Shown in pieces: positions 1 through 27,169 of a DNA stretch of 64,000 bases. The translations under genes were made by a program, and so were the position numbers. Position 1 is the stretch's first letter. Every line of letters begins with the position of its first letter. The DNA comes from Planctomycetota bacterium (lineage in GTDB: Bacteria > Planctomycetota > SZUA-567 > H5-PLA8), in the NCBI GenBank assembly GCA_045863855.1, contig BTVV01000024.1:1-64000 (forward strand), written 5' to 3'. Below the pieces are notes generated by a model, which saw only the letters and a program-made list of their open reading frames with translations, was not told the DNA's origin and ran no database searches.

Positions 1-100
1 AATCCTTCCGGGTACACAAAAAAAAGTCCGGTAGCACGTTCGCGCGTGCGCGGGCCATTGGTTGTGCCAAGCCGTATTGCGCGCGCCGGGGAGCCTTATT

Positions 101-1486
101 GTGGCCGAATTGCGGGTTGCTTCGTGGCATGCCGTGCGCGAACGCCTGCAAGCAGCACTCAGTCCCGAGTCCTTCGACACGTGGTTTCAGCAGGTCGAGT
201 TGGTCGAGTGGGACGGGGAGTGCTTGAAGCTGGCGGTTCGAAATCGATACGTGAAGCAGTGGATCGAAGATCATTATCGTCGCGAGTTGCTTCGTGCGGC
301 GCGCGAGGTTGAGCCGGAGACGCGCAAGGTGGAACTGCACGTGCAACCCGCGGTGACCGAACGCAGCGCACAGGCCACGGCGATCGGCGGCATTCTTGAG
401 AATGTGATTCAGCCGCGCCCGCGCGACACTCGTGCGCCGGCCGAGGACGACCGCAGCGCGTTCGAGCGGGCGAGTTCCGGGACGGGCTGGCGCTTGGACG
501 ATTTCGTGCAGGGCGCATGCAACCGGCTGGCCTATTCGGCGGCCCGGTCGCTCGTCGATTCCCCCGCCACGGCGTATAACCCCCTCTTTTTGCACGGCGA
601 TCACGGCTTGGGCAAGACGCACCTGTTGCAGGGCCTCGAGAGGGCGCTGCGCATCGCGCGCCCGAACGCTAAGGTGAAGCTGCTCTCGTGCGAAGCCTTT
701 GCCAACGAGTATTTGCGCGCGGTGCAGGACCGCAAGATCGACCGCTTCCGCGAAACGTATCGTTCGAGCGACGTGCTGCTGGTGGACGATGTGCAGTTTT
801 TGGTCGGCAAAGAGAAGACGCAGGAAGAGTTCCTCTATACGTTCGACGCCTTGGTGAATGCCGGCAAGCAGGTGGTGCTGACGGCGGATCAGGCTCCGCG
901 GACGATCAAGGAACTCGACGCGCGGCTGCTGGCGCGATTCCAGTCGGGGCTGGTGGTTCGGCTGGACCGGCCGGACTACGAGACTCGGGTGGAGTTGATT
1001 CAGTCGAAGGCGGTGGCGCGACGGATGACCTTGCCGCTGGAGCTGGCCGAACTGCTGGCGATGCGGATCGACTTGAGCGTGCGCGAGTTGGAAGGCGCGG
1101 TCTGCAAGCTCTCGGCGCTGGCGGCGGCCGAAGGGCGGCTGCCCGACCGCGAGATGGCATCGCTGGCGCTGCGCGAATTAGGATACCTGCGCGAGGGTCC
1201 GCTTTCGCCGGCCGAGATTCTGGAAGCCGTGGCGCAGCGCATGAACTTTGAAGTCGACCAGATCCGCGGCGCGAAGCGGCATGCGGGTCTGGTGCAGGCG
1301 CGGCATCTGGCGATGTTTCTCTGCAAGCAGCTCACCTCGTACAGCCTCAGCGAAATCGGGCGTTTCTTCGGCAACCGCGATCACAGCACCGTCTTGCACG
1401 CCGTGCGCAAAATGGATCGGCAGTTTAAGAAGGATGAGGACATGCAGCGCGAAGTTCAGGCGCTGCGCCGCGGGCTGGGACGCTGA
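101..1486 (+). CDS. dnaA: Chromosomal replication initiator DnaA
   Basis: Domain I (FDTWF), YNPLFLHGDHGLGKTHL Walker A, DDVQF Walker B, RELEGA, domain IV RDHSTVLHA. GTG at 101 with GGGAG upstream is preferred over 62. Confidence 0.96.
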   Translation: MAELRVASWHAVRERLQAALSPESFDTWFQQVELVEWDGECLKLAVRNRYVKQWIEDHYRRELLRAAREVEPETRKVELHVQPAVTERSAQATAIGGILENVIQPRPRDTRAPAEDDRSAFERASSGTGWRLDDFVQGACNRLAYSAARSLVDSPATAYNPLFLHGDHGLGKTHLLQGLERALRIARPNAKVKLLSCEAFANEYLRAVQDRKIDRFRETYRSSDVLLVDDVQFLVGKEKTQEEFLYTFDALVNAGKQVVLTADQAPRTIKELDARLLARFQSGLVVRLDRPDYETRVELIQSKAVARRMTLPLELAELLAMRIDLSVRELEGAVCKLSALAAAEGRLPDREMASLALRELGYLREGPLSPAEILEAVAQRMNFEVDQIRGAKRHAGLVQARHLAMFLCKQLTSYSLSEIGRFFGNRDHSTVLHAVRKMDRQFKKDEDMQREVQALRRGLGR

Positions 1487-1524
1487 GCGCTACCTTATAA
1501 GGTAGGCGCGCATTCATCGGAACG

Positions 1525-1560
1525 AAAACAGGCCGCCCTCAAGGGCGGCCTGTTTTGTTT
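1525..1560. terminator. Bidirectional intrinsic terminator between dnaA and aminotransferase
   Basis: AAAACAGGCCGCCCT-CA-AGGGCGGCCTGTTTT inverted repeat with A/T tails, between convergent genes. Confidence 0.85.
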
Positions 1561-1581
1561 AATCCACTAACTACAAACGAG

Positions 1582-2745
1582 TTACAGAAGCACTTCCTTC
1601 GGCGCTTGGGCCAGGACGTCCTGCGCGGCGGCCAGTCCGGCGCCAAGCTTGACCCCGTACCCGTTGGCTTTCAGGCCCAGTTCCAACGCCGCGATGCCGC
1701 TGAGCGTATCCATCCCGCTGCAATAGCCCATGTGCGCGATACGGAACATCTTGCCTTTCATCTCGCCTTGGCCGTTGGCGAGGGTGACGCCGTAGCGGTC
1801 GCGGGCGGTCTTGATCACGGCGCTGCTGTCGAGTCCGCCGGGGCTCTTGACGACGGTGAGCACCTCGGCGGGGCTGTCGGGGAAGAGTTCGAGCCCCAGG
1901 GCTTTGACGGCGGCGCGGGTGGCTTGGGCCAGGACCGCGTGGCGCTTGTGGACGTTGTGGATGCCTTCTTCGACGAGCATGGCGAGGGCTTCGTTCTGCG
2001 CGTCGAAGAGCGTATTGGCCGGCGTGAACGGAGGATCGTTCTCGGGAAGTCCTTTGCGCGCGCGGAGCAGCGAAGAGTAATACGTGGGCGCGCCTTTGTT
2101 CGCTTCGACGACCTTCCAGGCGCGGGGGCTGACGGAGAGCATGGAGAGGCCGGGGGGCATCATCAGGCCCTTCTGGCTGCCGGCCATGAAGAGGTCGACG
2201 CCCCAGGCATCGACCGGACAGGCCATGCCGATGGCGCCGCTGATGCCGTCTACGCCGTAGAGCGCTTCGGGGTTGACCTTGCGCACGGCTTTCCCGATGT
2301 TCTCGATATCGTACTTCGCGCCGGTGCTGGTCTCGCAGAGGTGCAGGTAGACGGCCTGGACGGCCGGGTCTTTGGCGCGTTCGGCGACCTGTTCGGGCGT
2401 GGGGCTGCGGCCGTAGTCGAGCTTGAGTACATCGAGCCCGAGCTTGTACTGTTCGCAGATCTGGACGAGGCGTTCGCCCCACTTGCCGGCGCTGACGACG
2501 ACGGCTTTGCGTCCGGGGCTGACGACGTTGACGATCGCGGCCTCCATGGCGACGGTGCCGGAGCCGGTGAAGACGAGTACGTCGTTCTTCGTTTCGAAGA
2601 CCTGCTGGAGGCGCTGTCGGACCTGGGCGTAAATTTCGCGGAAGCGCGTGGAGCGGTGATACCAGGCTTGCTCCATCAGCTTGGCTCGCACGCGGTGCGG
2701 CACCTGGCTGGGTCCGGGGGTGAGCAGGATTTCCTTCAGCGCCAT
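1582..2745 (-). CDS. Class V PLP aminotransferase (serine-pyruvate/alanine-glyoxylate family)
   Basis: LLTPGPS, HRS, ETSTG, DGIS, GSQKGLMMPPGL (PLP Lys), FRIAHMG. Start at MALKEIL. Confidence 0.9.
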   Translation of the reverse strand: MALKEILLTPGPSQVPHRVRAKLMEQAWYHRSTRFREIYAQVRQRLQQVFETKNDVLVFTGSGTVAMEAAIVNVVSPGRKAVVVSAGKWGERLVQICEQYKLGLDVLKLDYGRSPTPEQVAERAKDPAVQAVYLHLCETSTGAKYDIENIGKAVRKVNPEALYGVDGISGAIGMACPVDAWGVDLFMAGSQKGLMMPPGLSMLSVSPRAWKVVEANKGAPTYYSSLLRARKGLPENDPPFTPANTLFDAQNEALAMLVEEGIHNVHKRHAVLAQATRAAVKALGLELFPDSPAEVLTVVKSPGGLDSSAVIKTARDRYGVTLANGQGEMKGKMFRIAHMGYCSGMDTLSGIAALELGLKANGYGVKLGAGLAAAQDVLAQAPKEVLL

Positions 2746-2947
2746 GGCGACATCGTCCTTTCTTGGGCCGAACGGGTTTGAAAAGCGAATCGGCTGAAGA
2801 CAGTTTACCCTCGCCCGGAAGGCCGAAAAGGACCGATGTCCGGCTGCGGATCGAATCGGCGCAAGGTGCGGTTCAAAAACCAAGGCGGGCCGAAGGGCGA
2901 AGGCAGGAACCCAAGGCGCGGCGCGAAATTCGGCTTCGCGAAGAGGC

Positions 2948-3640
2948 TTAATTCAGGCGCTTGGCGCACGCGTAAATATTACATCCGCTGGCGCGCAGAA
3001 ACCCGGCCAAGGTCACGTTAAAGCGTTCGGCTGTCTCCACGGCCAGGCTGGACGGCGCACCGACGGCCGCGACGACGGGGATGCCGGCCATCACGGCTTT
3101 CTGGAGCAGCTCGTAACTGGCCCGTCCGCTGACCAGGAGCACGCGGTCGCGCAGGGGGAGTTCGTCGCGCAAAAAGTGCGCGCCGATGAGCTTGTCGAGC
3201 GCGTTGTGCCGGCCGACGTCTTCGCGAAGGTCCAGCAGTTCGCCGGCGGCGGAGAAGAGCGCTGCGGCGTGGAGGCCGCCGGTGCGTTCGAAGACGGCTT
3301 GGGCGGCGCGGAGTCGTTCGGGCATGGCCTGGAGCCGTGCGGCGGAAAGCAGCGGTTCTTGCGGGACGGGGAGCGGTTCGGCGTGGATGGCCAGGGCTTC
3401 CAGCGAAGCCTTGCCGCAGACGCCGCAACTGGAGGTCGTGTAGAAGTTCCGCGACACGCGGACGAGGTCGCAGGCCACGCCCGCGCGAAGCGTGACGCGG
3501 ACGGCGTTCTTGAGCTGCGGTTCGGGCGTACCGTCGACGCAGTAGCTGACGTCGAGCACGTCGTCGCGGCGCTTGAGCAGCCCTTCGGTGAAGAGGAAGC
3601 CGGCGGCGAGTTCGAAGTCGTCGGCGGGCGTGCGCATGGT
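2948..3640 (-). pseudogene. fdhD: Formate dehydrogenase accessory sulfurtransferase FdhD, 5'-truncated
   Basis: TMRTP..DFELAAGFL, SSCGVCGK, TGGLHAA, EDVGRHNALDKLIG, APSSLAV are present. The usual N-terminal EEPLEIR segment is absent and similarity stops at ~3640; the upstream frame hits TGA at 3722-3724. Confidence 0.75.
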
Positions 3641-3696
3641 CGCCCGGGCTTGGAAGCCCGGGCCATCCCACACCCCCTTTAAGGAGGGCCGTACCC

Positions 3697-3912
3697 ATGG
3701 CCGTAACCGTTCGCCACGGCGTCAACACGCTCACGCTGGAGACGCTGGCCGGGAAGTCCGTTGCGCAGGTCCGCGAGGAGGTCGGCGGCCTCTTGAACGT
3801 CCCCGAGACGGCGCAGGTCCGCGTCAACGGGCTCCCGGCCGTCGACGGCCAGGGCGTCCCCGAGGGCGCCAGCGTCGAGTTCGTGAAGGTCGCCGGCGAG
3901 AAGGGCGCGTAG
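3697..3912 (+). CDS. Prokaryotic ubiquitin-like (beta-grasp) protein
   Basis: 71 aa, AAGGAGG RBS, ThiS/MoaD-like pattern VRVNG...VPEGASVEFVK, C-terminus AGEKGA, first gene of an E2/JAB/E1 operon. Confidence 0.8.
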   Translation: MAVTVRHGVNTLTLETLAGKSVAQVREEVGGLLNVPETAQVRVNGLPAVDGQGVPEGASVEFVKVAGEKGA

Positions 3913-3991
3913 CCCTCGGCCGGAGTCCACCCTAGGCGGCGCGCCCTGACCAACCCGGCTGGGGCGCGCCGCCATAAACCCAGGAGCCCCC

Positions 3992-4741
3992 ATGGCCACA
4001 TCAGACGAACGCCGGCGCATCGCCATCGAAGGCGGGCTGGTGCGCCTGGAACGGACAGTGATCGAACGCGAAGCCCGTACGGAAGACTTTCTGGCCGAGA
4101 TCGCGCGGATGCAGCCGGTGGATACCGGCGTCTTGCCCGAAGGCTGCATGCTCATGGCGCGGCGCTGCGACGCCCAGAAGCGCTGCTCGAACCTGTACGT
4201 GATCGAACGAGCTCCGGGCATGCAGCGGATTCACTTCAACGGCGATCCCGGCGCCGAAGACGACGCGGAAGACTCCAACGCTGCGCACGAAGTCGTGGAA
4301 CTGAACCTCTCCTGGCCGCGCACGCTCTGGATCTGCCGCACGAGCCAGGCCGCGGCGGAGGCGGCGATCGTCGTCACGGACTTGTGGGTCGTGGCCGTGA
4401 AGACCTCCGTGCGCGAGACCGAACGCAACACGCCGATATTCTGCCTGCCCATGCCGAACATCTACCACGAGGGCCACGGCGCCATCTGCATGGGCAATCT
4501 TTCCGTGGGCAATTGCGAGAACCCGCTGGCCGACCGGATCGACGCGGCCATCCACGGGGTTTTGGATTCGGCCTGGAACACGGACCTGATGCCGGAGTTC
4601 GAGCGCCTGGAGATCGCCAGCCTGGCCGACTGGGCCGAAAAGAGTGCCGCCGATCCGGCGTTCCACCGTCAGATCACCTATCAACCGCACCGCCAAGCCA
4701 CCTTGGGCGGACTCCTGCTGCACCTGGCCCCCAGCCCCTAA
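3992..4741 (+). CDS. Prokaryotic E2-like protein (Prok-E2 family D / PRTRC protein B-like)
   Basis: LSWPRTLW and PMPNIYHEGHGAICMGN match the E2 'P-x-PN-x-x..G-x-IC-x-G' catalytic Cys motif; AGGAG RBS; operon context. Confidence 0.72.
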   Translation: MATSDERRRIAIEGGLVRLERTVIEREARTEDFLAEIARMQPVDTGVLPEGCMLMARRCDAQKRCSNLYVIERAPGMQRIHFNGDPGAEDDAEDSNAAHEVVELNLSWPRTLWICRTSQAAAEAAIVVTDLWVVAVKTSVRETERNTPIFCLPMPNIYHEGHGAICMGNLSVGNCENPLADRIDAAIHGVLDSAWNTDLMPEFERLEIASLADWAEKSAADPAFHRQITYQPHRQATLGGLLLHLAPSP

Positions 4742-4761
4742 CCCAGAAAGGACCGCTACCC

Positions 4762-5094
4762 GTGAAGCCCTTCGATGCCGTGGAAGCCGCCCTTCGAAAC
4801 TGCCCGCCGTTCGAGAGCCGCTCGCTGGGCGATTTCCTGGGCGATCTGGTGACCGAAGATCTGGACGCCCTGGCGCAGCTGCCGGGATCGCCCGGACAGG
4901 TACTGGCCGCGCAGTTTACGTGCTACGCCCGCAGTTCCGTCCCGCTTAGCGAAGCGCTCCAGCAGCAGACCGAGCCTTTCTTAACCTTGCAGGACACGCT
5001 GGGGCGATTGTCCGCTCTGGGTGCTTTACCGGCCAAGCGCAGGAGGTCCGCGCGTGCAGATCCATCCGATTCCCAAGCCCGCTCCGGGCGCTGA
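4762..5094 (+). CDS. Hypothetical protein (110 aa) in Ubl operon
   Basis: GTG at 4762 with AAAGGA RBS, fills the gap between E2 and JAB; 3' end overlaps the JAB start. Confidence 0.55.
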   Translation: MKPFDAVEAALRNCPPFESRSLGDFLGDLVTEDLDALAQLPGSPGQVLAAQFTCYARSSVPLSEALQQQTEPFLTLQDTLGRLSALGALPAKRRRSARADPSDSQARSGR

Positions 5095-5902
5095 GCCGGA
5101 GTTGCCGAAAGAGCCGCTGTGTTACGTCGCCGGCGCCACGGGGTTGTTCAAGGTCATCCGAAATCCCTTCTACAGCGCTTGCGTCCCGGCCGGCGAAGTG
5201 GCCGGCTTGGCCGATCTGAAAGAAGGCGCCCAGTTGCACGTGCCCAAGCTGCCGCTGGAGCTGTTCCGCCGGATCGAGTCGTTCTTCGTGGCCGTCTTCC
5301 ACAAGTACGGCTCGGAGGCGGTGGTGCTCCTGTACTGCGATCCGGTGAAAGGCCGCTGGGAGGCGCTTGCGCCGCCGCAGACCGTGCGCGGTCTGCATGT
5401 CGAGTACGGCCTGGAGACGCTCCCCGAGCCACCGCCCGGGTATCAGCTCTTCGGGACCGTCCACAGCCATGCCAACGTGAATGCGTTCCATTCGGGGACC
5501 GACGACGAAGACGAAGCGCACTTCGACGGCTTGCACATCACCGTCGGGCACGTGGACAGGCCGCAGCGCAGCTACGCCTGCCGCTGGATGATCGCGGGCA
5601 AGGCGTTCAAGTCCGACCTTGACGACGTCGTCCGGCTTGAGGCGTTGCCGAAGGCCGAGGCGCAGTGGCTGGCGCAGGTCACCCAGGCGCGTCCGAAGCC
5701 GGCGCAAGCGCCGGCCTTCGCCGAGAGCCGATCGGGTGGGGGGCAGCCGTCGTTCTGGGAGGAAGCCCTGCCCGAAGAGTTCGAGACCCACGAAGAGTAT
5801 CTGCTTTACCTGGAGTCCTTGCGCGAGGACCTCGACGCGCGGATCTACGAGGCCGGACAGTACGAACCCCCCATCGGAGAACGCCATGCGGCCACACGCT
5901 GA
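5054..5902 (+). CDS. JAB/MPN+ metalloisopeptidase (PRTRC protein A-like)
   Basis: Glu in SEAVVLLY plus HSHANVNAFHSGTD = HxH-x7-SxxD JAMM motif; GTG 5054 with AGGAGG RBS. Confidence 0.88.
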   Translation: MQIHPIPKPAPGAEPELPKEPLCYVAGATGLFKVIRNPFYSACVPAGEVAGLADLKEGAQLHVPKLPLELFRRIESFFVAVFHKYGSEAVVLLYCDPVKGRWEALAPPQTVRGLHVEYGLETLPEPPPGYQLFGTVHSHANVNAFHSGTDDEDEAHFDGLHITVGHVDRPQRSYACRWMIAGKAFKSDLDDVVRLEALPKAEAQWLAQVTQARPKPAQAPAFAESRSGGGQPSFWEEALPEEFETHEEYLLYLESLREDLDARIYEAGQYEPPIGERHAATR

Positions 5903-6608
5903 ACGGATTACTTTGGTCGGTTGCGGCGGGATTGGGAGCTGGTTTTTGGCCCCGCTGCTGCGCTTCCTGAACGCCGAGCGCTATGCCGGCGAGATTCATC
6001 TCTGGGACGGCGATCGCTATGCCGAAAGCAACGCCCAGCGCCAGGAGTTCGCCTTCGAGCGCCTGGGCGCAAACAAGGCGCAGGTCCAGGCTGAGTGCTT
6101 CCTGACCCATTATCCGGCTCTGCGGCTCTATGCGCATCCCGAGTACGTCGCCGACCGAACGGTGGCCGACGCAGTACGCGATCGCACGATCGTGCTGGTG
6201 GCGGTGGATAACCACCCCGCTCGGCGCCGGATCGCGTTGCAGGCCGAACGGCTACGCGACGTATGCGTACTCTCGGCCGGGAACGAACGCCTCGACGGGA
6301 ACGTACATGTCACCTGGCGCCGAGGCGGGCGCGATTTGACCGTGCCGCTTTTGGCCCGGCATCCCGACGTCGCACGCAGCCAGGCCGGCGACCGAGCCGA
6401 GGCCGGCTGCGAAGACCTGATCGAACAGGGCGAGACCCAGCTTCTGGTGACCAACTTCATGGCCGCCGCGGGGCTCTTAGCCGCGTTTCATGCGCTCTGG
6501 ACTCACGGCGAGCGCCACGGCCGGCGGAAGAACTCGGTCGTGCCGCAGGAGCTTTACTTCGACGCGGGAGCCTGCGCGATGGCGCTGGTTCCCGCCGCAC
6601 CACGTTAG
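5886..6608 (+). CDS. ThiF/E1-family adenylyltransferase
   Basis: VGCGGIG, DGDRYAESNAQRQ, GANKA, VDNHPAR, candidate catalytic Cys in AGCEDL; no CxxC zinc pairs. Confidence 0.9.
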   Translation: MRPHAERITLVGCGGIGSWFLAPLLRFLNAERYAGEIHLWDGDRYAESNAQRQEFAFERLGANKAQVQAECFLTHYPALRLYAHPEYVADRTVADAVRDRTIVLVAVDNHPARRRIALQAERLRDVCVLSAGNERLDGNVHVTWRRGGRDLTVPLLARHPDVARSQAGDRAEAGCEDLIEQGETQLLVTNFMAAAGLLAAFHALWTHGERHGRRKNSVVPQELYFDAGACAMALVPAAPR

Positions 6609-6616
6609 GAGAGCCA

Positions 6617-7363
6617 ATGCCGATCTTCGTCCTGCATGCGGCCCACGTGCTTCAGGCCGCCCATAACTCCAGTACGCAGGTGATCCTCCCACTTACCGCC
6701 ACGGACTCGAGGGACAACTACTCGATGGACGAAGGCGACGGCCTGTGGATCCCCGAATACGTCGCATGGATGGAACAGATCGTCCGGCGCATGACCGGAT
6801 CGCCTTCGTTTGCCTTCTCGAACGATCGGGAACTGGAGGACGATTTGTTCTATGACGTGCCCGTCGCCCATCTGCGTGGGCTGTTAATCGAGTTCACCAA
6901 CCGTGTCTACCCGGGTTGGCGCGATCGAATCGATCTGCCCGACTACGACGACGTGCGTGAGGGCTGCCGCGGTTACTGCGACGGCTGCGACAGCGCGTAC
7001 CGGACTATCTACGGCACCTACGACGGGCCTCTGGCCGAGGACGTCGAAGAGGACGAGGACGCGGACGAAGCGAATCTGGACCCACAAGAGCGCGAAGCGC
7101 GCATTCATCGCAACGCCGCGCGTTCTGTTGAGCGGATGCAACTTCAAGCCGACCAGGAAGCCGCCGAAGACGAGGTGGTCGATTCCGAATGGGTTTGCGA
7201 CACCGACTGCGATCCGTTCCTGGATCATGTAATCGAATCGTTCCGCGAACGTATGGAGTGCGACACCGACCGGCTCGACTCGGAGTGGGACGCGTTTACG
7301 AAAGAACGGGGCATCCGGATCTTCCCGCCGCTCTTGGTTTCGTTGGCCCGCGCCTCAGCCTAG
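6617..7363 (+). CDS. Hypothetical acidic, Cys-containing protein
   Basis: ATG 6617 with AGGAGA RBS, 8 nt after E1 stop; Asp/Glu-rich; CRGYCDGC and CDTDC. Confidence 0.7.
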   Translation: MPIFVLHAAHVLQAAHNSSTQVILPLTATDSRDNYSMDEGDGLWIPEYVAWMEQIVRRMTGSPSFAFSNDRELEDDLFYDVPVAHLRGLLIEFTNRVYPGWRDRIDLPDYDDVREGCRGYCDGCDSAYRTIYGTYDGPLAEDVEEDEDADEANLDPQEREARIHRNAARSVERMQLQADQEAAEDEVVDSEWVCDTDCDPFLDHVIESFRERMECDTDRLDSEWDAFTKERGIRIFPPLLVSLARASA

Positions 7364-7453
7364 GGATGCGTCCGCAAAAAAAGTCCACGCCTTTCACGCT
7401 CCCCACGTTCCTGGGGAATCCCGCTTTTCCAACCCTTGAACCCGGAGCAGCCC

Positions 7454-8464
7454 ATGACCACGAACCTGTCGTTAGGCACGGTGTTTTTCCTGGACGGGCT
7501 CGTGCCCGTCACCACCGACCGCGTCCGTTCAAGCCTGGAGGCCTCGGGACTCGATCCGCAGATGGCCCGCGACCTAGCCAAGCGCTTCTGCTTCTCGCGG
7601 GCCAAGAACAAGCTCCGCGACGAGGGGCTGATCGACGAAGTCGGCGAGACCGATACGCGCTGGACCTGGCAGCTCTCGCGGCGCTACCGCGAAGAGAACC
7701 GCCTGGGCTACGAGTTCGAAGCCGCGTTTTGGTTCGATAAGGCGAACCAGTCCGTGGGCGCCGACAACGCGGTGCTCCTGGAGAAGGTCCAAGCGCTCTT
7801 CGCCCAGTACGGCGCTCTGTACCTGGCCGGGGACATCACCAAGGTCGTACGCCGGATCTTCGAAGCCCAGAAAGGGATGGTGAAGCTGCGCCACGCCGGC
7901 GCGATCTACTTCGTGCCGCGGGAGAACCGCGCCCTCATGGATAAGGTCGCGGCCTTCGTGCGCGATCTGGGCGGGCAGTGCGTAACCGTCCCCGTGGGGG
8001 CCGAGAATACCATGGTCCGCGATAAGGCCTTGGAGATGCTCGTCGAGGCCGTGCGCGGCGATCTTGGCAGGGTAGTCGGCGAGATGAAGGCCTTGGAGGC
8101 CCAAGGCGAAGCGCTCACCCCGCGCAAGGCCAAGAACCGTTGGCAGGAACTGGCCGCGCAACTCGATCGAATCAAGCTCTTCGCGCGGAGCCTCTCGACC
8201 GATGCCACAGGGCTCTTGGGGCAGGTCCGGGATTCTGAGTTGGACCTGGCGTTGGTGGCCCAGGCCGACCTGGACGTGATCGCGGCGTTGGCGCACGCCG
8301 GCAAGGTGGGCGGGGCGCTCTCCCAGATCGTCCGCCATGCCTACGCAGGGGAACTCCCGCCGATCCGCTCGGCGCGGGTGCGCGCCGCCCGCGTGGTGCT
8401 GGAAGGCCCGGAGACGATCCAGTTGCCCGTGGTCGCGGGCCGAGCGCCCGCGCTGGAAGCGTAA
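7454..8464 (+). CDS. DUF6744-like hypothetical protein
   Basis: GGAG RBS; pattern LG.V.F...L...GLDP...FSRA and LRHAGAIYFVP followed by helical C-terminus, recalled from DUF6744. Confidence 0.55.
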   Translation: MTTNLSLGTVFFLDGLVPVTTDRVRSSLEASGLDPQMARDLAKRFCFSRAKNKLRDEGLIDEVGETDTRWTWQLSRRYREENRLGYEFEAAFWFDKANQSVGADNAVLLEKVQALFAQYGALYLAGDITKVVRRIFEAQKGMVKLRHAGAIYFVPRENRALMDKVAAFVRDLGGQCVTVPVGAENTMVRDKALEMLVEAVRGDLGRVVGEMKALEAQGEALTPRKAKNRWQELAAQLDRIKLFARSLSTDATGLLGQVRDSELDLALVAQADLDVIAALAHAGKVGGALSQIVRHAYAGELPPIRSARVRAARVVLEGPETIQLPVVAGRAPALEA

Positions 8465-8529
8465 GTACCTACCGTGTCGCTCACCGCGAGCGCGCTTACT
8501 TCCCCGATCCCTGAACAGGAGGCTTGTAC

Positions 8530-10089
8530 ATGCAGGCCATGACCGTACTGCTCGCCGCCCTCAAAGCACGCCTGCCGGGCGTGCATTTACGCACCCTCGA
8601 AGAGGCTCGTGCCCTGGAAGCCCTGCGACAGGCCGTGCAGGCCCTGTCGAGCCAACTGGCGCCGCGGGTGCTATGGCGCTGGTCTTCGGCCTCAGGGCTG
8701 CATCACCTTCCGCCCAGCGACGATCTGCCCAGCATGCCCGTCCAGGAACCCTGCGCCCTAGACGACGCCTTTACGCACTTCAAGAAGTCCTCTGAAAATA
8801 TCGTCCTGGCGTTGCTCGATCCGTGGGCCGAACTGGGCAACCCGTATTTCGTGCGCGCGTTACGCGAAGCGCTGACGCACGCGCGGGGCTCCGGGAAGGC
8901 GATTGTGCTGGTCGGGCGCGATTGGAAGATCCCGCCCGAACTCCAGGCCGATCTGTTCGTTGCGAACTTGCCGCTGCCCACGCGGGCCGAACTCAACGAG
9001 TTCATCCAGTCCCTGGCAGTCCTGTACCGCGCGCAGCTGGCCGACAAAGTCAGCATCGACGAAGCGGCGCTGCCCGAGTTGGCCCGCGCCTGCCAGGGGC
9101 TCACGCTTGACGAGACGCGCAGCATCGTAGCCCTTTCGTTGGTCAGCTACCGGGCCTTGGGCGCCGATTCGATCGGGTTGGCCATTCGCGAAAAGCGCCA
9201 GATCGTACGTCGAAGCGGAGTGCTGGAATACGAAGAGCCCCAGCGCGATCTGGCTGGGGTGGGGGGGCTGGAACTCCTGAAGGGCTGGGTCACCAAACGC
9301 CGGCGGCTCTTCGAAGACAACGCCCGGGCTGCGGGAATCCATGCGCCTAAGGGGCTGCTCTTGGTGGGCGTCCCCGGTACGGGCAAGACGCTGGCGGCGC
9401 GCGCCATCGCCGCGGCCTGGAAACTCCCGCTGGTCCGGCTCGATGCCGGGCGGCTCTTCGGGAGCTTGGTCGGTGAGTCCGAGAGCAATCTGCGCCAAGC
9501 GATCCGGACGGCCGAGGCCATCGCGCCGTGCGTGGTTCTGGTCGACGAGATCGAGAAGGCCTTCGCCCAAGGCGGAGGGCAGGACGGCGGGACTTCGCAA
9601 CGGGTCTTCGGCGCCCTACTGACTTGGCTTTCCGATAAGCAGGCCGAGTGCTTCGTGGTGGCGACCGCCAACGAGATCGGCGTATTACCACCGGAGTTGT
9701 TACGCAAAGGTCGCTTCGACGAGATCTTCGCCGTGGACTTGCCCGACGCGGCGGCGCGCGAGGAGATCCTGCGCATTCACCTGGAGCAGGCCAAGGCCTC
9801 CTTTAAGAAGAGCGAGCTTGCCGACCTGGCCGGCGCCTGTTCGGGCTACACCGGCGCCGAACTGGAAGCGGCGGTCCAAGCGGCCTTGGTCGAGGCCTTC
9901 GACGACGGCGAACGCAAGGTCCGGCCGGCCGACGTACTCCAGGCCATCCGGAACACCGTGCCGCTCTCGCGGACCATGGCCGAAAAGATCGACGCCCTGC
10001 GCGAGTGGTGCCGCAGCGGACGGGCCGTGCCCGCCGGACGCCCGATCGAAGCCGACGATGCCAGGAAGCAGGTGACCGTTGAGGTTTAG
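8530..10089 (+). CDS. AAA+ ATPase, Ycf46/SpoVK/Vps4-type
   Basis: AGGAGG RBS; degenerate N-terminal AAA domain; [59 protein letters not shown]. Confidence 0.92.
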
Positions 10090-10628
10090 GTGTCCTTCTT
10101 GAACTCATCCCAATGTGGGTTCAGCCATACGCATCTATTGGCTACGCTCTGAAGATCCGACGAGACGGACCGCTCGAAGCCAGCCACGTAGACCTCTTTC
10201 TTCAGGTCGTCCTTTACGTAGGAAACCGCATCCATCAGGTCACCGTCTCCGGACGAAAGCAGCACCCGATCGTACTTATCCTGCGCGGCCAGTTTGATCA
10301 GGAGCGTTGCGATGCCCACGTCCACTCCCTTCTGGACAGGACGCTCGTGTTCCTTTCCGCAAGCCGGGCAGGTGAGGCGCTGAGTCTTCAAGGCGTAAGG
10401 CAGCACCCGGAATTGCGGGCCTGTGGGGCTGGCCAGCTTGAGCCAGCGCAGGAAGGCGTCCTGCTTCTCGTTGGGCTCCGGCGACTTACTGTCCAGAAAG
10501 TAGCTCTCGATAAATCGACCGTCGCCGGGGCCTTCGAGCAGGTGCTTGAGCTTCAGATAATCGAACCGCCCGGGAGCGCAAGCATGCATGTAGCCGCCGT
10601 CGATGATCCAGATCACGCGCTTGGCCAT
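10086..10628 (-). CDS. NYN domain (LabA/DUF88, PIN-like) nuclease with CxxC insert
   Basis: IDGGY, CPACG, QKGVDV, SGDGDL, S.DL...A motifs. Confidence 0.88.
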   Translation of the reverse strand: MAKRVIWIIDGGYMHACAPGRFDYLKLKHLLEGPGDGRFIESYFLDSKSPEPNEKQDAFLRWLKLASPTGPQFRVLPYALKTQRLTCPACGKEHERPVQKGVDVGIATLLIKLAAQDKYDRVLLSSGDGDLMDAVSYVKDDLKKEVYVAGFERSVSSDLQSVANRCVWLNPHWDEFKKDT

Positions 10629-10743
10629 CGAAGCCCTCGTCCGTATTCCCAAGTGAGTTGCCTGCTGAAAGGAAGACACGACTTATACCGCATTGTTTCC
10701 GCGCCGAAGTGGGCGAACGCACCCCCCGTATCCGGAGAACCCC

Positions 10744-11103
10744 ATGAGCCACATCGCCACCGTGAAAGTGAAGCTGAAAGACCGTGCCTTGCTCGCCGAA
10801 GTCTGCGGCGAACTGAATATTCCCTGCGACCTCGGAGAGCCGGACGTCCGGCTCTACTCGGGCGTCGTCAAAAGCGCCGCCAGCGTCCAGCTCAAAGGCT
10901 GGACCTACCCCGTCGCGGTCCTGCACGACGGCACCGTCCAGTACGACAACTTCGAGGGCCAGTGGGGCGCGACGCGCGAGTTGCATGCGCTCTTGCGCCG
11001 CTACTCCGAGCGGGTCGCCTTGCGCCACGCCCAGCGCCTGGGCGCCAGTGTCCAGCGCGAAGAGCGCGCCGACGGGACGATCCTGCTGCGCCTGCGCGCC
11101 TGA
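10744..11103 (+). CDS. DUF1257 (Ycf35-like) protein
   Basis: MSHIATVKVKLKD..LL, GW.YPV, YDNFEGQWG, LLRRYS, E.ADGTI.L; canonical Ycf46 partner. Confidence 0.82.
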   Translation: MSHIATVKVKLKDRALLAEVCGELNIPCDLGEPDVRLYSGVVKSAASVQLKGWTYPVAVLHDGTVQYDNFEGQWGATRELHALLRRYSERVALRHAQRLGASVQREERADGTILLRLRA

Positions 11104-11138
11104 GTCGAAGTCCCACCCATCGCAAAGGAGCCCGCCAC

Positions 11139-11333
11139 ATGCCGCGCCAGATCGTTGTGACCATCTCGCCCGAAGGCGAAATCGAAGTGCGGGTCGAAGG
11201 CCAGTCCGGACCGTCCTGCCAGGATCTCACCCGCAAGCTTGAAGACGCGCTCGGGACCGCCGTGGCCGACCGGCGCACGCCCGAGTTCCACCAGCCCGAC
11301 CGGCAGGATCACCGCCAGCAGACCGGGCGCTGA
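11139..11333 (+). CDS. DUF2997 protein
   Basis: I.VTISPEGEI.V.VEG..GPSC.DLT..LEDALG......TPEF; AAGGAG RBS. Confidence 0.85.
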   Translation: MPRQIVVTISPEGEIEVRVEGQSGPSCQDLTRKLEDALGTAVADRRTPEFHQPDRQDHRQQTGR

Positions 11334-11352
11334 ACATGGAAAGGAGCTTCTG

Positions 11353-11607
11353 ATGGATGCTTTGATCGCCGTGCGCCCGGACGGGCAGGTGGAGTTTCTG
11401 TACGACGATGCGCTCGGCGCGCTCCTGCTCGAAGGCGAAGGCCGTGTCCTGCGCGCCTCGCACGTCGAACCTACTTCCGACGGCCGCTGGCAAGCGGATC
11501 TTGCACCTATTGGCGGGCCGAAGCTGCCGGCTACACGTACTCGCGGCGCCTCGACTCAAGCGGAGATCGTATGGATCGAGCGAAATCGGTTGACCGAATG
11601 CCCGTAG
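11353..11607 (+). CDS. Conserved hypothetical protein following DUF2997
   Basis: AAGGAG RBS; RASHVEP...GRWQADL.P.GGP.L....R.....AE..W pattern recalled from similar planctomycete clusters. Confidence 0.7.
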   Translation: MDALIAVRPDGQVEFLYDDALGALLLEGEGRVLRASHVEPTSDGRWQADLAPIGGPKLPATRTRGASTQAEIVWIERNRLTECP

Positions 11608-11630: not shown

Positions 11631-11673
11631 GCGCCGGTGCCGGGCCTCGCAGCTCGGTACCGGTGTTTTTCTT
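11631..11673 (+). terminator. Intrinsic terminator closing the AAA-DUF1257-DUF2997 operon
   Basis: 14-bp stem CGCCGGTGCCGGGC/GCTCGGTACCGGTG (with G-U pairs), 6-nt loop, then TTTTTCTT. Confidence 0.75.
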
Positions 11674-11768
11674 AGCTATGGGCTCGGAAAAAGGTGGAAT
11701 CGATGACGCCGGCGCTCAAGAAAATGAGTTCACAACCAAAGGACCCTAATTGCAATTACCTTTTAGGG

Positions 11769-11790
11769 TGTTACAAAACGCTGTTACAAA
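11769..11790 (+). repeat. Direct repeat TGTTACAAA x2, candidate integrase arm-type sites
   Basis: Copies at 11769-11777 and 11782-11790 in an AT-rich stretch ~55 bp before the tRNA fragment. Confidence 0.55.
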
Positions 11791-11845
11791 CTCACTTGAC
11801 GTTTTTATAAACTATTATACCAAAACAACTTAATTTTTAGTAACG

Positions 11846-11890
11846 TGCCTTACAAGCAGGGGGTCGGGGGTTCGAATCCCTCATCGCCCA
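11846..11890 (+). other. 3' half of tRNA-Val(TAC), candidate att site (not an intact tRNA)
   Basis: TGC-CTTACAA-GCAGG anticodon arm, GGGTC, GGGGG-TTCGAAT-CCCTC T arm, ATCGCCCA acceptor 3' strand; D arm and 5' acceptor strand absent. Confidence 0.88.
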
Positions 11891-11946
11891 CTATACCCCT
11901 TCGCCATGCCTGCTCGATGCCGCGTGCGTAAGCCCCAATCGTTCGA

Positions 11947-13914
11947 TCAGGCATTCGCGATCAGGTTCGAGGCATTGACCTTCAGGTTGTAGCGTTCGCG
12001 CGCAATCTTCGCGACGCCTTCGGCGAACTGCTGGTGATCGTGCAGGATGCGGCAGAAATCGGCCTTGCCCAGCACGAACAGGTCGCACGAAGACTTGCAG
12101 CGCACGTTGGCGGTGCGCGGCGTGGACATCAGCAGCGCGATCTCGCCGAAGAAGTCGCCGTCTTTCAAGGTCTTGATCACCTTGCCCGAATCATCCAGAA
12201 TTTCCACTTCGCCGCGGGCGATCAGGTACATCTCCTGCCCCAAATCGCCCTTTTTGATGATCGTTTCGCCTTTGGCGGTCTGCATCGGCTTCAACGCCAT
12301 GATCACTTGCGAGAGGAACAGCATGTCGCCATTTTTGAAGAGGTCCACCTGCTTCAGGACTTCCTCGGTGACGACTTCGTGCCAGCGCCGGCCGTCGCGC
12401 TTGATCAGTTCGGCTGCGGCTTTCGGGCCCCAACTGCTGCGCGCGTAGTTGGGGAAGTCGGCCGGATTGGCTTTCCAACTGTCCAGCAGCGGTTGCGCGA
12501 TACGCCACGCGGCTTCGACCAAATCGCCGCGCGAGAAGAGCGTGCCGTCGCCGAGGCTGCACGAATAGATCATCACTTCGTAGCCCGTGTAGCGCGAAGC
12601 CTTGAACGCATCGCCGTAGCCGAAGCGCATGTGGACGGGCTGGATCTTCATCAGCGGCCCGGGAATCTTGGCCTGGAACTGGATCTCGATGCCCTGGTAC
12701 GGCTGGATGTGGAAGATCAAGCGGTTCGCGCCTAGGTGCTGGCATGGGGTGTTGCGGAAGAGCACCTCCGGCGCCTTCTTGAACTCCACGACGATCTCGG
12801 TGCCGCGCTTCCAGAGCGCCTTGCCGCTGCGCAGGTAGATCGGAACGCCTTCCCAGCGCCAATTGTCGATGTGCAGCCGCGCCGCCGCGTACGTCTCGGT
12901 CTTCGACTCCGGATTGACGTCCTTTTCTTCGCGGTAGCCAGGCTTGAGCACCTTGCCGGCATCGTCCACCTGTGGGCCATACTGGCCGCGTACGACGTAC
13001 TTCTCCACTTCTTCCGGCGTGTACGCGCGCACCGCCTGGAGCAGTTTCGCTTTCTCGTTGCGGATGGAATCCGACGCGAAGGAGCCCGGCGGCTCCATGC
13101 ACAAATACGCCAGCATTTGGAACATGTGGTTCTGCATCATGTCGCGCAGCACGCCGGACTGGTCGTAGTATCCGCCGCGCCCTTCGGCGTCGACGGCTTC
13201 GGAGACGTTGAACTGGATGTTGTCGATGTAGTTCTTGTTCCAGAGCGGCTCGAACATTCCGTTGCTGAAGCGGAACGTGAGCAGGTTCTGGACGGTCTCC
13301 TTGCCCAAGTAATGGTCGACGCGGTAAATCTGGTCTTCGTTCCAGTGCACCAGAATTTCTTTGTTCAACTGCAGCGCCGACTCAAGGTCCGTCCCGAACG
13401 GCTTCTCGACGATGATGCGCTTCCAGCCGGCGCCTTCGCGGAAGCCCGCCTTGTTCAGGTTGTCGCAGATTAGGCCGAAGAAGCGCGGCGCCGTGGCGAA
13501 GTAAAAGAGCACGTTCCCCTGCGCCTGATGCTGGTCGTTCAGTTCCGCGACCTTTTTCTTCAGCGTCTGGAACGCGTCGAGGTCCGCGAAGCCAGCAGGA
13601 ATGTAATGGAAGCGGTTGACCAGCTTGTCCCAGACGGCTTGATCGAATTCCTTGCGCGTATGGAACTTCTTGATGTCTTCGTTCATCCGCGCTCGCCACT
13701 CTTCGGTGGTGAGCTTGTCCATCGCCGAGCCCAGGACCGCGAAGTTATCGCTCAGCAGGCCGTCGCAGGCGAGATTGTACATCGCTGGCACCAGCAGCCG
13801 TTTGGTCAAGTCGCCGGAGGCCCCGAAAATCAGCATGATGCACGGATTGCTGGTCGGGTTGTCGGACACTCCCGGCGCCGAAATCGAACCGGTCACTTGC
13901 GTGGTCGCGGACAT
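11947..13914 (-). CDS. zwf: Glucose-6-phosphate dehydrogenase with C-terminal cyclic-nucleotide-binding domain
   Basis: GASGDL, EKPFG, RVDHYLGKE, DMMQNH, RWEGVP.YLRSGK; C-terminal GD.GQEMY.I..GEV...GDFFGEIALL...PRTANV. Confidence 0.93.
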   Translation of the reverse strand: MSATTQVTGSISAPGVSDNPTSNPCIMLIFGASGDLTKRLLVPAMYNLACDGLLSDNFAVLGSAMDKLTTEEWRARMNEDIKKFHTRKEFDQAVWDKLVNRFHYIPAGFADLDAFQTLKKKVAELNDQHQAQGNVLFYFATAPRFFGLICDNLNKAGFREGAGWKRIIVEKPFGTDLESALQLNKEILVHWNEDQIYRVDHYLGKETVQNLLTFRFSNGMFEPLWNKNYIDNIQFNVSEAVDAEGRGGYYDQSGVLRDMMQNHMFQMLAYLCMEPPGSFASDSIRNEKAKLLQAVRAYTPEEVEKYVVRGQYGPQVDDAGKVLKPGYREEKDVNPESKTETYAAARLHIDNWRWEGVPIYLRSGKALWKRGTEIVVEFKKAPEVLFRNTPCQHLGANRLIFHIQPYQGIEIQFQAKIPGPLMKIQPVHMRFGYGDAFKASRYTGYEVMIYSCSLGDGTLFSRGDLVEAAWRIAQPLLDSWKANPADFPNYARSSWGPKAAAELIKRDGRRWHEVVTEEVLKQVDLFKNGDMLFLSQVIMALKPMQTAKGETIIKKGDLGQEMYLIARGEVEILDDSGKVIKTLKDGDFFGEIALLMSTPRTANVRCKSSCDLFVLGKADFCRILHDHQQFAEGVAKIARERYNLKVNASNLIANA

Positions 13915-22768: not shown

Positions 22769-24517
22769 CTACACCAGCCCGCATTCCCGCAACCAGCCGT
22801 AGAGCGTTTTGCGCGTCACGCCCAAGGCGGCGGCGGCGCGCGCTTTGTTGCCTTTGGCGTCGCGATAGGCCGCGCGCACGGCTTGCCGCCAGGCTTCGCC
22901 GCGCCCGGTTCCTGCGCCGGGCTCGGCGATGGTGCGCAGCGGCTGGAAGAAAGCGCCTTCCAGGACCGGGCCGTCTTCGCGCAGCGCGGCCTGCAGAATC
23001 ACGTGCTGCAACTCGCGCACGTTACCGGGCCAGGCGTGAACTTCGAGGCGTTCGACGAAGTGCGGGGCCAGCCCGATCAGGCGCTTGTCGAGCTGGATCG
23101 CGAGTCGGCGGAGGATCTCTTCGGCCAGCAGGATCAGATCGCCGCCGCGTTCGCGCAGCGGCGGGACGCCGAGCGTGAACTGATTGAGGCGATGGTACAG
23201 GTCGGCACGGAAGAGGCCGCGTTCGACGAGCCGTTCCAGGGGGACGTTGGCGGCGGCGACGACACGGACATCGACGGGGATTACCTGATTGCCGCCGACG
23301 CGGGTGATTTCGTGCTGCTGTAGCGCGCGGAGGAGCGCCACCTGGCCGTGCGGGCTGAGCGAGGCGATCTCGTCGAGGAAGAGCGTTCCGCGGTGCGCGA
23401 GTTCGAACTTGCCCGGTCGGCGGCGGTCCGCACCGGTGAACGCGCCTTTCTCGTGCCCAAAAAGTTCGCTTTCCAGGAGGGTTTCGGGGAGCGCGCCGCA
23501 GTTGAGCGTCACGAAGGCCTGGTGCGCGCGGGCGCTGAGGCGGTGCACTTGACCGGCGACGAGTTCCTTGCCCGCGCCGGTCTCGCCTTCGATCAGGACG
23601 CCGACGTCGTAGCCGGCCACGCGCCGGATGAGCTGGAAGAGTTCGGCCATGGCCGGGCTGCGCCCGATCATCGGCCCCAGACTCGCTTCGCCCGGCGAGC
23701 CGACGGCCGCCGCGACGCTCTTGAAGCGCCGCACCGTCGTGCCCGTGATGTCGCGCAGCGGGAGGCGTTCGAAGACCGAGCCGCCCGCGAAGCCTTCGAC
23801 GCTCGTGAAGCGAAAGAGCAGTTCCAGGTCTTCGGGCGTCGTGACCGGCCCGCCGTAGGCGAGACAGGGAATGCCGGGGCGGACCGCGCGCACCGCCGCG
23901 TGCATCGCGTTCAGTGTCGTGAACGCCTGCTGCAAGCGGTCGCGCTTCTGCTGCAAATCGGCGATGCCCTGCGTGAGGCCCATTACCAGCACCACGCCGT
24001 CGCAACCGCTCTCGGCCCACCGCGCGGCCTCTTCGGCCGTGTACGCATACGGGAACGTCTCGAAGCCCAGCGTCTTGGCCCACCGCAGCGCCTCGATCTC
24101 GCGGGCGAGGCTCAACCCGTCGGCTTCGAGCGCCGAGCGGTAGGTTCCGTCGATTGCGCCGACGGACGGCCAGAGCGTCAACGCGCGAACTCCCCAATGC
24201 TTGTAGCGTTCGAGCGCCGCGGCCAGTTCGGGATCGCCGGCGTGCCCAAAGCATCCGGCCAGAACCGGGCAGGCGCCGGTGTGCGGAAGCAGGTGCTCGC
24301 GCAGCAACGCTTCGGTCTGCGCGTTGGCGTTTCCGTAAGGCATGAACGCAGCGATGCTCGAGCGGCCTAAGGTGCGGAAGTAGCCGGCGCTGAGCGCGAC
24401 GAGGTAGTCGGCGCCGGCGTGGACGGCGGCGCGGGCGACTTCGCCGGACCCGGCGACGACGCCGATGGTGCGCTCCTTCCGGCGCGCGCCATCTATAAGG
24501 AGGGCTTTCAAGCTCAT
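22769..24517 (-). CDS. Sigma54-dependent activator with N-terminal TIM-barrel (PEP-hydrolase-like) domain
   Basis: GETGAGKE, ESELFGHEKGAFTGA, LFLDEI, WPGNVREL, Fis HTH; N-terminus resembles the 26307 TIM-barrel protein (PYGNAN, GGP, GF.G.S..ERLP). Confidence 0.9.
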   Translation of the reverse strand: MSLKALLIDGARRKERTIGVVAGSGEVARAAVHAGADYLVALSAGYFRTLGRSSIAAFMPYGNANAQTEALLREHLLPHTGACPVLAGCFGHAGDPELAAALERYKHWGVRALTLWPSVGAIDGTYRSALEADGLSLAREIEALRWAKTLGFETFPYAYTAEEAARWAESGCDGVVLVMGLTQGIADLQQKRDRLQQAFTTLNAMHAAVRAVRPGIPCLAYGGPVTTPEDLELLFRFTSVEGFAGGSVFERLPLRDITGTTVRRFKSVAAAVGSPGEASLGPMIGRSPAMAELFQLIRRVAGYDVGVLIEGETGAGKELVAGQVHRLSARAHQAFVTLNCGALPETLLESELFGHEKGAFTGADRRRPGKFELAHRGTLFLDEIASLSPHGQVALLRALQQHEITRVGGNQVIPVDVRVVAAANVPLERLVERGLFRADLYHRLNQFTLGVPPLRERGGDLILLAEEILRRLAIQLDKRLIGLAPHFVERLEVHAWPGNVRELQHVILQAALREDGPVLEGAFFQPLRTIAEPGAGTGRGEAWRQAVRAAYRDAKGNKARAAAALGVTRKTLYGWLRECGLV

Positions 24518-24527
24518 CGCGGGCCCC

Positions 24528-24571
24528 AGTGTATACTGAAAGTGTATAATACAAGTATACACCTATACACT
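24528..24571. promoter_or_regulatory. Candidate activator binding sites (UAS)
   Basis: AGTGTATA at 24528 and 24541, inverted TATACAC at 24556 and 24564. Confidence 0.6.
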
Positions 24572-24668: not shown

Positions 24669-24695
24669 TTACTTCACCTCATAAAGGAGCTGACC

Positions 24696-27158: not shown

Positions 27159-27169
27159 AGGAGCGCACG

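Follow-up and report, generated by a model that had tools for sequence, protein, structure and literature searches.

A six-gene ubiquitin-like cassette on a tRNA-integrated element of a Planctomycetota bacterium, with close relatives in large phages

Cassette genes and predicted active sites

This analysis concerns a cassette of six genes at positions 3697..7363 of a 64,000-nucleotide stretch of DNA from a Planctomycetota bacterium (contig BTVV01000024.1, positions 1 to 64,000; hereafter the window). An earlier note, made from the letters of the DNA, had described at this place a complete enzyme set of a ubiquitin-like protein (Ubl), an E2-like protein, a JAB metallopeptidase and an E1, and had favored conjugation over sulfur transfer. 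All six genes lie on the forward strand. The Ubl gene (3697..3912) codes for one beta-grasp domain of 71 residues in which a conserved Gly70 is masked by Ala71. It is followed by the E2-like gene (3992..4741; 249 residues, Prok-E2_D family, with Asn156, Cys166 and Asn196-x-Asp198), by gene X (4762..5094; 110 residues), and by a gene for a JAB/MPN+ metallopeptidase (5054..5902; 282 residues, with an N-terminal extension and with E88, H137, H139, S147 and D150). The E1 gene (5886..6608; 240 residues) encodes a single-domain ThiF fold with Cys175, but without a rhodanese domain or a CxxC zinc site, and gene Y (6617..7363) encodes an acidic protein of 248 residues in which a helical stretch is flanked by conserved CxxC and CxxxC motifs. 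Thus, the four genes of the original description are real, and each of the catalytic motifs named for their products was located in the sequence and was near-invariant across relatives; two further conserved genes had been missed, X inside the range and Y just outside it. All six reading frames are open and the active sites are intact. When the genes were compared with those of the same-genus genome G002, the ratio of nonsynonymous to synonymous substitution rates (dN/dS) was 0.14-0.27 for all six (0.14 for X), indicating purifying selection. A scan for sigma-70 promoters gave 0 sites, and a repeat search found nothing beyond chance-like families.

The Ubl ends in K69-G70-A71. Its structural model (predicted local distance difference test score, pLDDT, 90.7, from a 13-sequence alignment) showed the beta-grasp that the earlier note had expected. 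Foldseek matched the model to ubiquitin (E 8.8e-4, template modelling (TM) score 0.67), and in VIA the top match was MoaD (Z 8.2, root-mean-square deviation (rmsd) 2.6 over 67 residues), together with FUBI (Z 8.0) and other beta-grasp chains, at Z 8.2-8.0 and rmsd 2.1-2.7 over 66-67 residues. As judged from the model, the fold alone does not separate a modifier from a sulfur carrier. The Lys-Gly motif was present in 98 of 99 unique Ubl relatives, and a Gly-Gly end was absent, with Lys-Gly and a tail that varies across the family in its place. Among the 99 sequences, 47 stopped at the Gly of Lys-Gly, 45 carried 1-6 residues beyond it, six had longer tails (one of these being a Ubl-E2 fusion at locus L114), and one was cut off. 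On the sequences, a variable tail behind an invariant Gly has the look of a JAB-matured modifier; because the window's Ubl ends in Lys-Gly-Ala, the JAB likely trims one residue. Sequence searches of the PDB with the Ubl profile and with the E2 profile yielded nothing significant.

The active-site region of the E2-like protein reads P155-N156-I-Y-x2-G-x-G-A-I-C166-M-G168, with the Cys166 codon at 4487-4489. Pfam Prok-E2_D (PF14460) matched the protein at E 5.7e-5, under the Pfam cut-off, and in Atlas, Prok-E2_D clusters were retrieved both by structure (TM 0.71) and by features (0.96-0.97). Among 1.84 billion representatives searched, 134 relatives were found, and those of 200-320 residues (n=107) were aligned with the query. 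In this alignment, 57 of the 107 family members were matched by Prok-E2_D, and Cys166 and Asn156 were each found in 107 of 108 rows, with one gap. Conservation was also counted in a set of 178 loci, on the unique sequences spanning each column; there, Cys166 was present in 113/113 and Asn156 in 112/113 sequences. N196 was kept in 105 and D198 in 95 of 114 relatives, and position 154 was L, M or F. The spacing from Asn156 to Cys166 is 10 in the window's E2 and 8 in 79 of 112 relatives; in classical E2s the Asn-to-Cys spacing is 8. Column 197, a Thr in the window, varied across the family, and the His of the PRTRC-B protein of Ralstonia phage Dina aligned there; no conserved His was seen in the E2 family alignments. 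Tandem extra E2-like genes were observed near a complete cassette in two loci, three in L173:17409-20076 and two in L128:6961-8984. A version of the E2 of ~490 residues was also found in L059, L065 and L117 among housekeeping genes (RNase III, SMC, GreA and tRNA synthetases), which suggests a domesticated chromosomal form.

The JAB gene starts with GTG behind a good ribosome-binding site (RBS), and its product carries E88 and H137-S-H139-x7-S147-x2-D150. It matched Pfam Prok-JAB (E 4.4e-5) and NCBIfam PRTRC_A (E 1.7e-7), in both cases under the cut-off. In the rows of 139 relatives that spanned each column, E88 was found in 128/128, H137 and H139 in 134/134, S147 in 135/135, and D150 in 136/136. 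The E1 has the loop G12-C-G14-G15-I-G17, followed by D41/D43-x4-S48-N49-x2-R52-Q53, K64 and D108-N109-H-P-A-R113; the second of these motifs was therefore present as claimed before, but its spacing is D-x4-SN rather than the two residues first written. Cys175 lies within AGCEDL in the crossover region (codon 6408-6410). It was present in 116 of 118 rows (117 relatives and the query), of which three carried CxxC, and in 144/144 sequences of the locus set. Pfam ThiF matched the E1 at E 8.7e-18, and the best NCBIfam match was PRTRC_ThiF (E 1e-15, under the cut-off). The best PDB sequence matches of the E1 profile were MoeB, TcdA and ThiF, and four other full-length ThiF/MoeB-type genes are located elsewhere in the window's genome.

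Protein X lacks an invariant polar residue and had no family match in Pfam, NCBIfam, PHROG or PADLOC; protein Y had no hit in these four databases or in Atlas. By profile, X was found between the E2 and JAB genes in 16 of 143 unique loci, with weaker positional relatives in more loci. Y lay directly 3' of the E1 in 13 of the 143, all 13 of them within the window's E1 clade (see below); its CxxC and CxxxC are kept. Judging from these cysteines, Y is likely zinc-binding; we regard X as a candidate adaptor and Y as a candidate target selector.

Co-occurrence was examined on the 143 unique E1 loci, 70 of which extended for at least 4.5 kb upstream and at least 1.2 kb downstream. Among these 70, the JAB was present in 70, the E2 in 69, the Ubl in 65, and all four genes in 65. 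Rhodanese, cysteine synthase, ThiG and MoaE were absent among 77 neighbouring proteins scanned and among a further 138 (144 selected minus 6 already scanned), in keeping with the earlier claim that thiamine, molybdopterin and cysteine synthase genes are not adjacent.

Mobile carriage and relatives in large phages

Just upstream of the Ubl gene, at 3622..3653 (at about 3640), a 5'-truncated fdhD fragment is joined to the element that bears the cassette. The fragment (2948-3640, reverse strand; a sulfurtransferase gene with its 5' end missing) abuts the Ubl in the window. In G002, the sequences corresponding to window 1-3640 and 3640-11528 lie ~1.77 Mb apart, and the former, with dnaA, an aminotransferase gene and fdhD, is located downstream of window 11843 onward. 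Moreover, in the window's own assembly (G000) the 5' part of fdhD begins contig C146 (20-base overlap) and the upstream DNA of the element begins contig C251 (14-base overlap). When contigs from four runs of three studies were examined, the junction was bridged by 0 of 11, and both native continuations were found in 3 runs. This join is a misjoin of the assembly, or at most peculiar to its source, and fdhD and dnaA are therefore not real neighbours of the cassette; a link to sulfur metabolism through an adjacent fdhD is thereby ruled out. At the misjoin, a 22-base near-palindrome (window 3641-3662) precedes the RBS of the Ubl gene and is kept in G002.

The right end of the element is real, as contigs of two runs continue past its small genes and reach the 3' part of a tRNA-Val(TAC) gene (11843..11892, forward strand). 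This att-like end corresponds in sequence to the 3' portion of the tRNA-Val gene of G002, which is intact there; the 5' half was not found in the G000 assembly. The cassette thus sits on a tRNA-integrated mobile element, the sequence of which was almost unchanged across runs of three studies. The counterpart block in G002 is 90% identical and adjoins a tyrosine integrase and tRNA-Leu, and G012 has one copy that comes after a terminase and a PD-(D/E)XK nuclease and another that comes after a serine integrase. On the 5' side of the tRNA fragment is a 54-base AT-rich stretch (window 11763-11816) with an 81% match to an inverted copy ~73 kb upstream of tRNA-Val in G002; it is possibly an element-end motif.

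Of 61 relatives examined, 6 carried the E2, all of them in one family and with up to three matches per genome; across the phylum it was found in 11 of 401 genomes. Recurrent neighbours of the cassette were integrases, reverse transcriptases, AAA ATPases, nucleases and Ro60; in bacterial loci it lay beside integrases, a terminase, PD-(D/E)XK nucleases and reverse transcriptases. A reverse transcriptase was near the cassette in 14 loci (L034, L035, L058, L129, L183, L185-L192, L194, L201), and directly upstream of the E2 in L035. Ro60/TROVE genes were located a few kb upstream in L125:3246-4835, L050:4257-5801 and L154:4987-6579, two of these three being in the window's clade.

Viral relatives were also collected, and 80 of the 99 loci found were kept. 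An E1 tree was built with FastTree from 118 sequences (141 and 5 outgroups, with near-duplicates thinned) over 228 columns; the tree does not give the direction of transfer. The window's E1 fell into a clade (support 0.993) with L126, L127 and L047, three viral contigs of 185-192 kb. The contig of L047, which is also that of L125 (G439), carries the full set of six in the order seen in the window (E1 52%, Y 32%). It also encodes SbcCD, helicases, a primase, a DNA polymerase, a UvsX-like recombinase, sigma factors, an RNA polymerase subunit and a baseplate protein, and we judged it to be a phage because of these replication, transcription and baseplate genes. A Terminase_6N search was positive for two of five viral records and negative for the three closest contigs. 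In 43 more distant viral loci (the L130-L180 group, from IMG/VR contigs), the cassette occupies a fixed place next to phage RNA polymerase genes. There, an E2 fusion of about 850 residues, JAB, E1, a longer Ubl and a second ThiF gene stand directly before RNA polymerase beta'/beta, with SbcCD, radical SAM and WYL_2 genes on the other side and FolE2 after the polymerase genes. Nothing was found when viral sequences were scanned with the element's AAA protein or with a narrow alignment of the E2, and searches of GenBank phages and plasmids yielded distant hits only.

Relation to known systems and proposed function

By descent, the cassette lies near class 6d/PRTRC; it is Bil-like in outline, and it is neither Bil nor Bub. 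Class 6d operons were predicted by Iyer, Burroughs and Aravind in 2006. As far as the accessible text of that study goes (PMC1779556), they share with the window a stand-alone Ubl with a conserved C-terminal Gly, a JAB with an N-terminal extension, an E1 without rhodanese, a family-D E2 with a conserved Cys and no classical His, and a sporadic distribution on mobile elements. The same text describes an 'absolutely conserved' His downstream of the E2 Cys, which is absent here, and, in the JAB-N domain, an Arg and a Trp that are both strictly conserved, of which the Arg is kept here (Arg36) and the Trp is replaced by Phe39 (PMC1779556). The columns of Arg36 and Phe39 were both less than 50% conserved in the 139 relatives, and the JAB N-terminal region aligned to PRTRC_A positions 29-189 of 192. 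The window further differs from the class, as set out in the parts of that report that were available, in having X and Y as extra genes and in its occurrence in Planctomycetota and large phages (PMC1779556). The class does include an alpha-helical protein with conserved charged residues, the family of which is described in those parts as fast-diverging (PMC1779556). The profiles of X and Y matched neither PRTRC-F of Dina (E > 0.5) nor a Bacillus protein of 526 residues (E 0.21). A Bacillus thuringiensis plasmid cassette was hit by all four profiles, each of which scored it above Dina; it shares the N-x-D-L motif, and its E2 also lacks the downstream His. Bacillus thuringiensis is listed under 6d in the accessible text (PMC1779556). 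Since the plasmid cassette shares Asn-x-Asp and outscores Dina, the window's subtype may sit inside 6d as originally sampled.

The reference for PRTRC was TIGR03735-TIGR03742, with Ralstonia phage Dina as the control copy, whose A, B, C and F proteins all pass the cut-offs. The best named NCBIfam hits of the window's JAB, E2 and E1 were PRTRC_A, PRTRC_B and PRTRC_ThiF, and the E2-JAB-E1 order is kept. Carriage on plasmids, islands and phages is also shared with PRTRC, which the available text describes only as associated with mobile elements (PMC3318190). However, the window's JAB, E2 and E1 scored 31, 16.6 and 57.8, respectively, against cut-offs of 101.8, 131.45 and 144.75; the Dina E1 fell outside the window's family in the E1 tree; and PRTRC C, E, F and ParB had no match at E <= 0.1 among 12 element proteins scanned.

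With BilABCD of types I and II, the cassette shares the order Ubl-E2-DUB-E1 (with X inserted between E2 and JAB here), a Cys-based E1 and E2, and the lack of an E3 gene, as judged from the accessible text (PMC10557695). According to the same text, the Bil Ubl ends in Gly97-Ala98 and is unreactive until it is trimmed by the JAB (PMC10557695); in the window, removal of the masking residue is predicted. In the parts of the Bil study at hand, the E1 is composed of IAD, AAD and CYS domains with a zinc site, the E2 has a His next to its Cys, and the system is a host defence, whereas here the E1 is a single ThiF domain of 240 residues with no zinc motif and the E2 is of family D (PMC10557695). Bub of types I and II (class 6E) likewise has, in the text available, a homodimer-type E1 with a single adenylation domain and a JAB-matured Ubl, but is there described with Tyr/Ser oxyesters, fused genes and DUF6527, in contrast to the invariant cysteines and separate genes of the window (10.1101/2024.11.21.623953). 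DUF6527 (PF20137) was not found in the element, and identity with Bub is excluded, given the Tyr/Ser chemistry of Bub and the invariant Cys in both the E1 and the E2 of the window. Type II CBASS (Cap2/Cap3) differs in its E2-E1 fusion and CD-NTase, as compared with separate genes here and no nucleotidyltransferase among the element proteins. A further paper, in its accessible part, reports lone ThiF genes on archaeal elements and has no bearing on the cassette (PMC13444090).

Five classes of bacterial E1/E2/JAB operons were predicted in 2006, and preprints, as far as their available text goes, describe tests on 6C (Bil), 6E (Bub) and the CBASS type, which all differ in chemistry; one lists CBASS, Bil and Bub as the families in which conjugation has been demonstrated (10.1101/2024.11.21.623966). 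A biochemical test of 6d/PRTRC-like sets was not found in the literature searched, with most subscription papers outside its reach, and the supplementary operon tables of Iyer 2006 or of the bioRxiv preprints might already list this subtype. Given its small copy of six genes, none of them fused, its invariant cysteines and the clear point mutants that these offer, the cassette makes a predicted class directly testable.

We consider it very probable that the cassette carries out Cys-to-Cys Ubl conjugation, whatever its purpose, because an E2-family protein with an invariant Cys stands beside the E1 in 69 of 70 loci. The preference of the earlier note for conjugation over sulfur transfer is supported by this E2, by the E1 without rhodanese, by the Lys-Gly end, and by the lack of sulfur-relay neighbours. 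Following established E1/E2/JAB chemistry and the precedent of Bil, the zinc JAB would cleave off Ala71 and so expose Gly70, which a homodimeric E1 would adenylate with ATP and then bind as a thioester on Cys175. The Ubl would be handed to Cys166 of the E2, and a target amine, such as a protein lysine, would attack the E2~Ubl. In the E2 site, Asn156 would stand in for the asparagine of the HPN motif in classical E2s, and Asn196 and Asp198 would complete the site where PRTRC E2s carry His. Removal of the tag may also fall to the JAB. More speculatively, X and the Cys4 protein Y might do the work of an E3 by choosing or presenting targets, which raises the question of whether one of them is a target selector so far not recognised.

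As to purpose, we give about an even chance to protein tagging with the Ubl in the service of the carrying element or phage. This role is favored because of the clade shared with large phage contigs, the fixed place in phage genomes, and the patchy carriage on elements. With the closest relatives in large phages, one may also ask whether ubiquitin-like tagging is turned against the host by mobile elements. In a stronger form that we put forward with considerable doubt, phages and their integrated descendants would run a ubiquitination of their own, built on a Cys-E1 that is minimal and homodimeric and on a family-D E2 of the Asn type, and host proteins (of the defence or transcription machinery) would be tagged for takeover; as part of this doubtful form, helical X and zinc Y would together aim the E2 as a bacterial E3-like selector unrelated to RING or HECT. 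If true, this would be an offensive counterpart of the defensive Bil, Bub and CBASS pathways.

Several points weigh against the proposal of Ubl tagging for the element. The earlier note had expected structure prediction to confirm a UBC fold, and the E2 model (pLDDT 93.4, from the 107-sequence alignment) gave a weak match only: Foldseek found no match at E <= 0.001, and in VIA the best Z was 4.4-4.5 (rmsd 3.8-5.6, 109-146 residues aligned), below the Z of 7-8 that unrelated models typically reach, although 11 of the top 12 rows, at this weak Z, were E2 or Cap2 entries. The assignment to the Prok-E2_D family is firmer than the fold match, and we regard the UBC fold as likely. The His proposed by Iyer 2006 as part of the active site is absent from the window's E2. 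The conservation counts come from hits selected by family profile, kin included, and so overstate independence, and the targets of the pathway are putative. Finally, the characterised bacterial relatives with a shown role, Bil and CBASS, are host defences, integrated elements often carry defences, and the NYN gene of the element resembles a defence candidate.

In a tentative alternative that is possible but on the unlikely side, the same chemistry would serve defence against phages or competitors, as in Bil, by tagging proteins of an incoming phage and so shielding the host or the resident element. The order Ubl-E2-JAB-E1 is that of BilABCD in the accessible text (PMC10557695), and the distribution is patchy and on islands. 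Related islands in G002 carry restriction and toxin-antitoxin-type genes, a Swt1-HEPN helicase lies next door in G013, a TIR protein is encoded upstream in L058, and a DUF6527 (Bub) gene lies near L089. However, PADLOC had no match for Ubl, E2, X, JAB or Y and matched the E1 via its generic ThiF part only, and no CapH/CapP or WYL regulator was found among the neighbours scanned beside the window's clade. Moreover, the fixed position among replication and transcription genes of large phages is unlike that of swappable defence cargo and argues for service to the element or phage.

It is improbable that the relay ends on a non-protein acceptor (a nucleic acid, a component of an RNA-protein particle, a lipid or a small amine), with the Ubl as carrier or tag in a modification pathway. 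Such an acceptor would be in keeping with an E2 site unlike the tested ones (Asn-x-Asp, no His), with the Ro60/TROVE genes upstream in L125, L050 and L154, and with the radical SAM and FolE2 genes flanking the jumbo-phage version; but such neighbours are not next to the window's cassette or the copies in G002 and G012, and no modifying enzyme is common to the whole family.

The pairs ThiS/ThiF, MoaD/MoeB and CysO/Mec combine a beta-grasp carrier with a ThiF-fold adenylase, with JAB maturation in the case of CysO. A sulfur carrier of this kind, in which the Ubl, adenylated by the E1, would turn into a donor with a thiocarboxylate, with CysO-like maturation by the JAB and with the E2-like protein in the role of persulfide or acceptor partner, is in our estimate very improbable. 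The MoaD match of the Ubl, tied with FUBI, the weak match of ThiS to 4 of 13 Ubls, the MoeB, TcdA and ThiF hits of the E1 profile, and the fdhD fragment abutting the Ubl could all be read in its favor. However, the fdhD junction is a misjoin, the E1 lacks both rhodanese and the zinc CxxC, and the Ubl lacks a Gly-Gly end. Moreover, no acceptor enzyme belongs to the set, the scanned neighbours included no sulfur-relay family, the E2 accompanies nearly every locus, and four full-length ThiF/MoeB-type genes are present separately in the genome. That the cassette is decaying cargo of a dead element, real genes with no current function, hardly deserves credence: no integrase was found at the right end of the element in this genome, a tRNA fragment being there only, nor virion or conjugation genes in 60 kb of the G002 counterpart, but the six open frames, intact sites, low dN/dS against G002 and nearly unchanged sequence in runs of three studies all argue otherwise.

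Downstream module and other features

Downstream of the cassette lies a separately travelling module. Its first gene (7454..8464, forward strand) encodes a DUF6744-like protein (PF20529, E 5.4e-6) and its second (8524..10089, forward strand) an AAA+ ATPase (PF00004, E 8e-33; phrog_8638, E 5.5e-137), which we take to be of the Ycf46 type. On the reverse strand, 10086..10679 encodes an NYN-domain protein (PF01936, E 1.3e-12) that is present in G002 and not in the G012 copy. Three small genes follow on the forward strand (10744..11607), encoding a protein of 119 residues with no Pfam hit, presumably DUF1257-like, a DUF2997 protein (11139-11333; PF11211, E 3e-15), and a protein of 84 residues without assignment. 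Their order is kept in G002, G012 and G007, and a terminator-like hairpin (11631-11666) stands after them.

In G000, G002 and G012, this module of DUF6744, AAA and small genes stands downstream of the cassette. A single obligate system of 11 genes, cassette and AAA module together, was considered and rejected, since the AAA gene was found in 3 of 74 loci with at least 6 kb downstream. G013 and the phage contigs have the cassette but not the module; L228 and G007 have the module but not the cassette, the E2 query having found nothing in G007. As a unit, the DUF6744, AAA ATPase and three small genes (window 7454-11607; L223, L228) appear as a conserved module at element ends; literature on DUF2997/DUF1257, judged by title, held no description of it. 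Another type of AAA ATPase lies just upstream of the Ubl in L038, L040, L041 and L114.

Elsewhere in the window, dnaA (62-1486) scored above the TIGR00362 cut-off and is followed by the aminotransferase gene, not dnaN. Beyond the element, 11947-13914 (reverse strand) encodes a glucose-6-phosphate dehydrogenase with a fused C-terminal cyclic-nucleotide-binding domain. On contig C1 of the same assembly, 26 tRNA genes are arrayed on one strand at 23667-28178.

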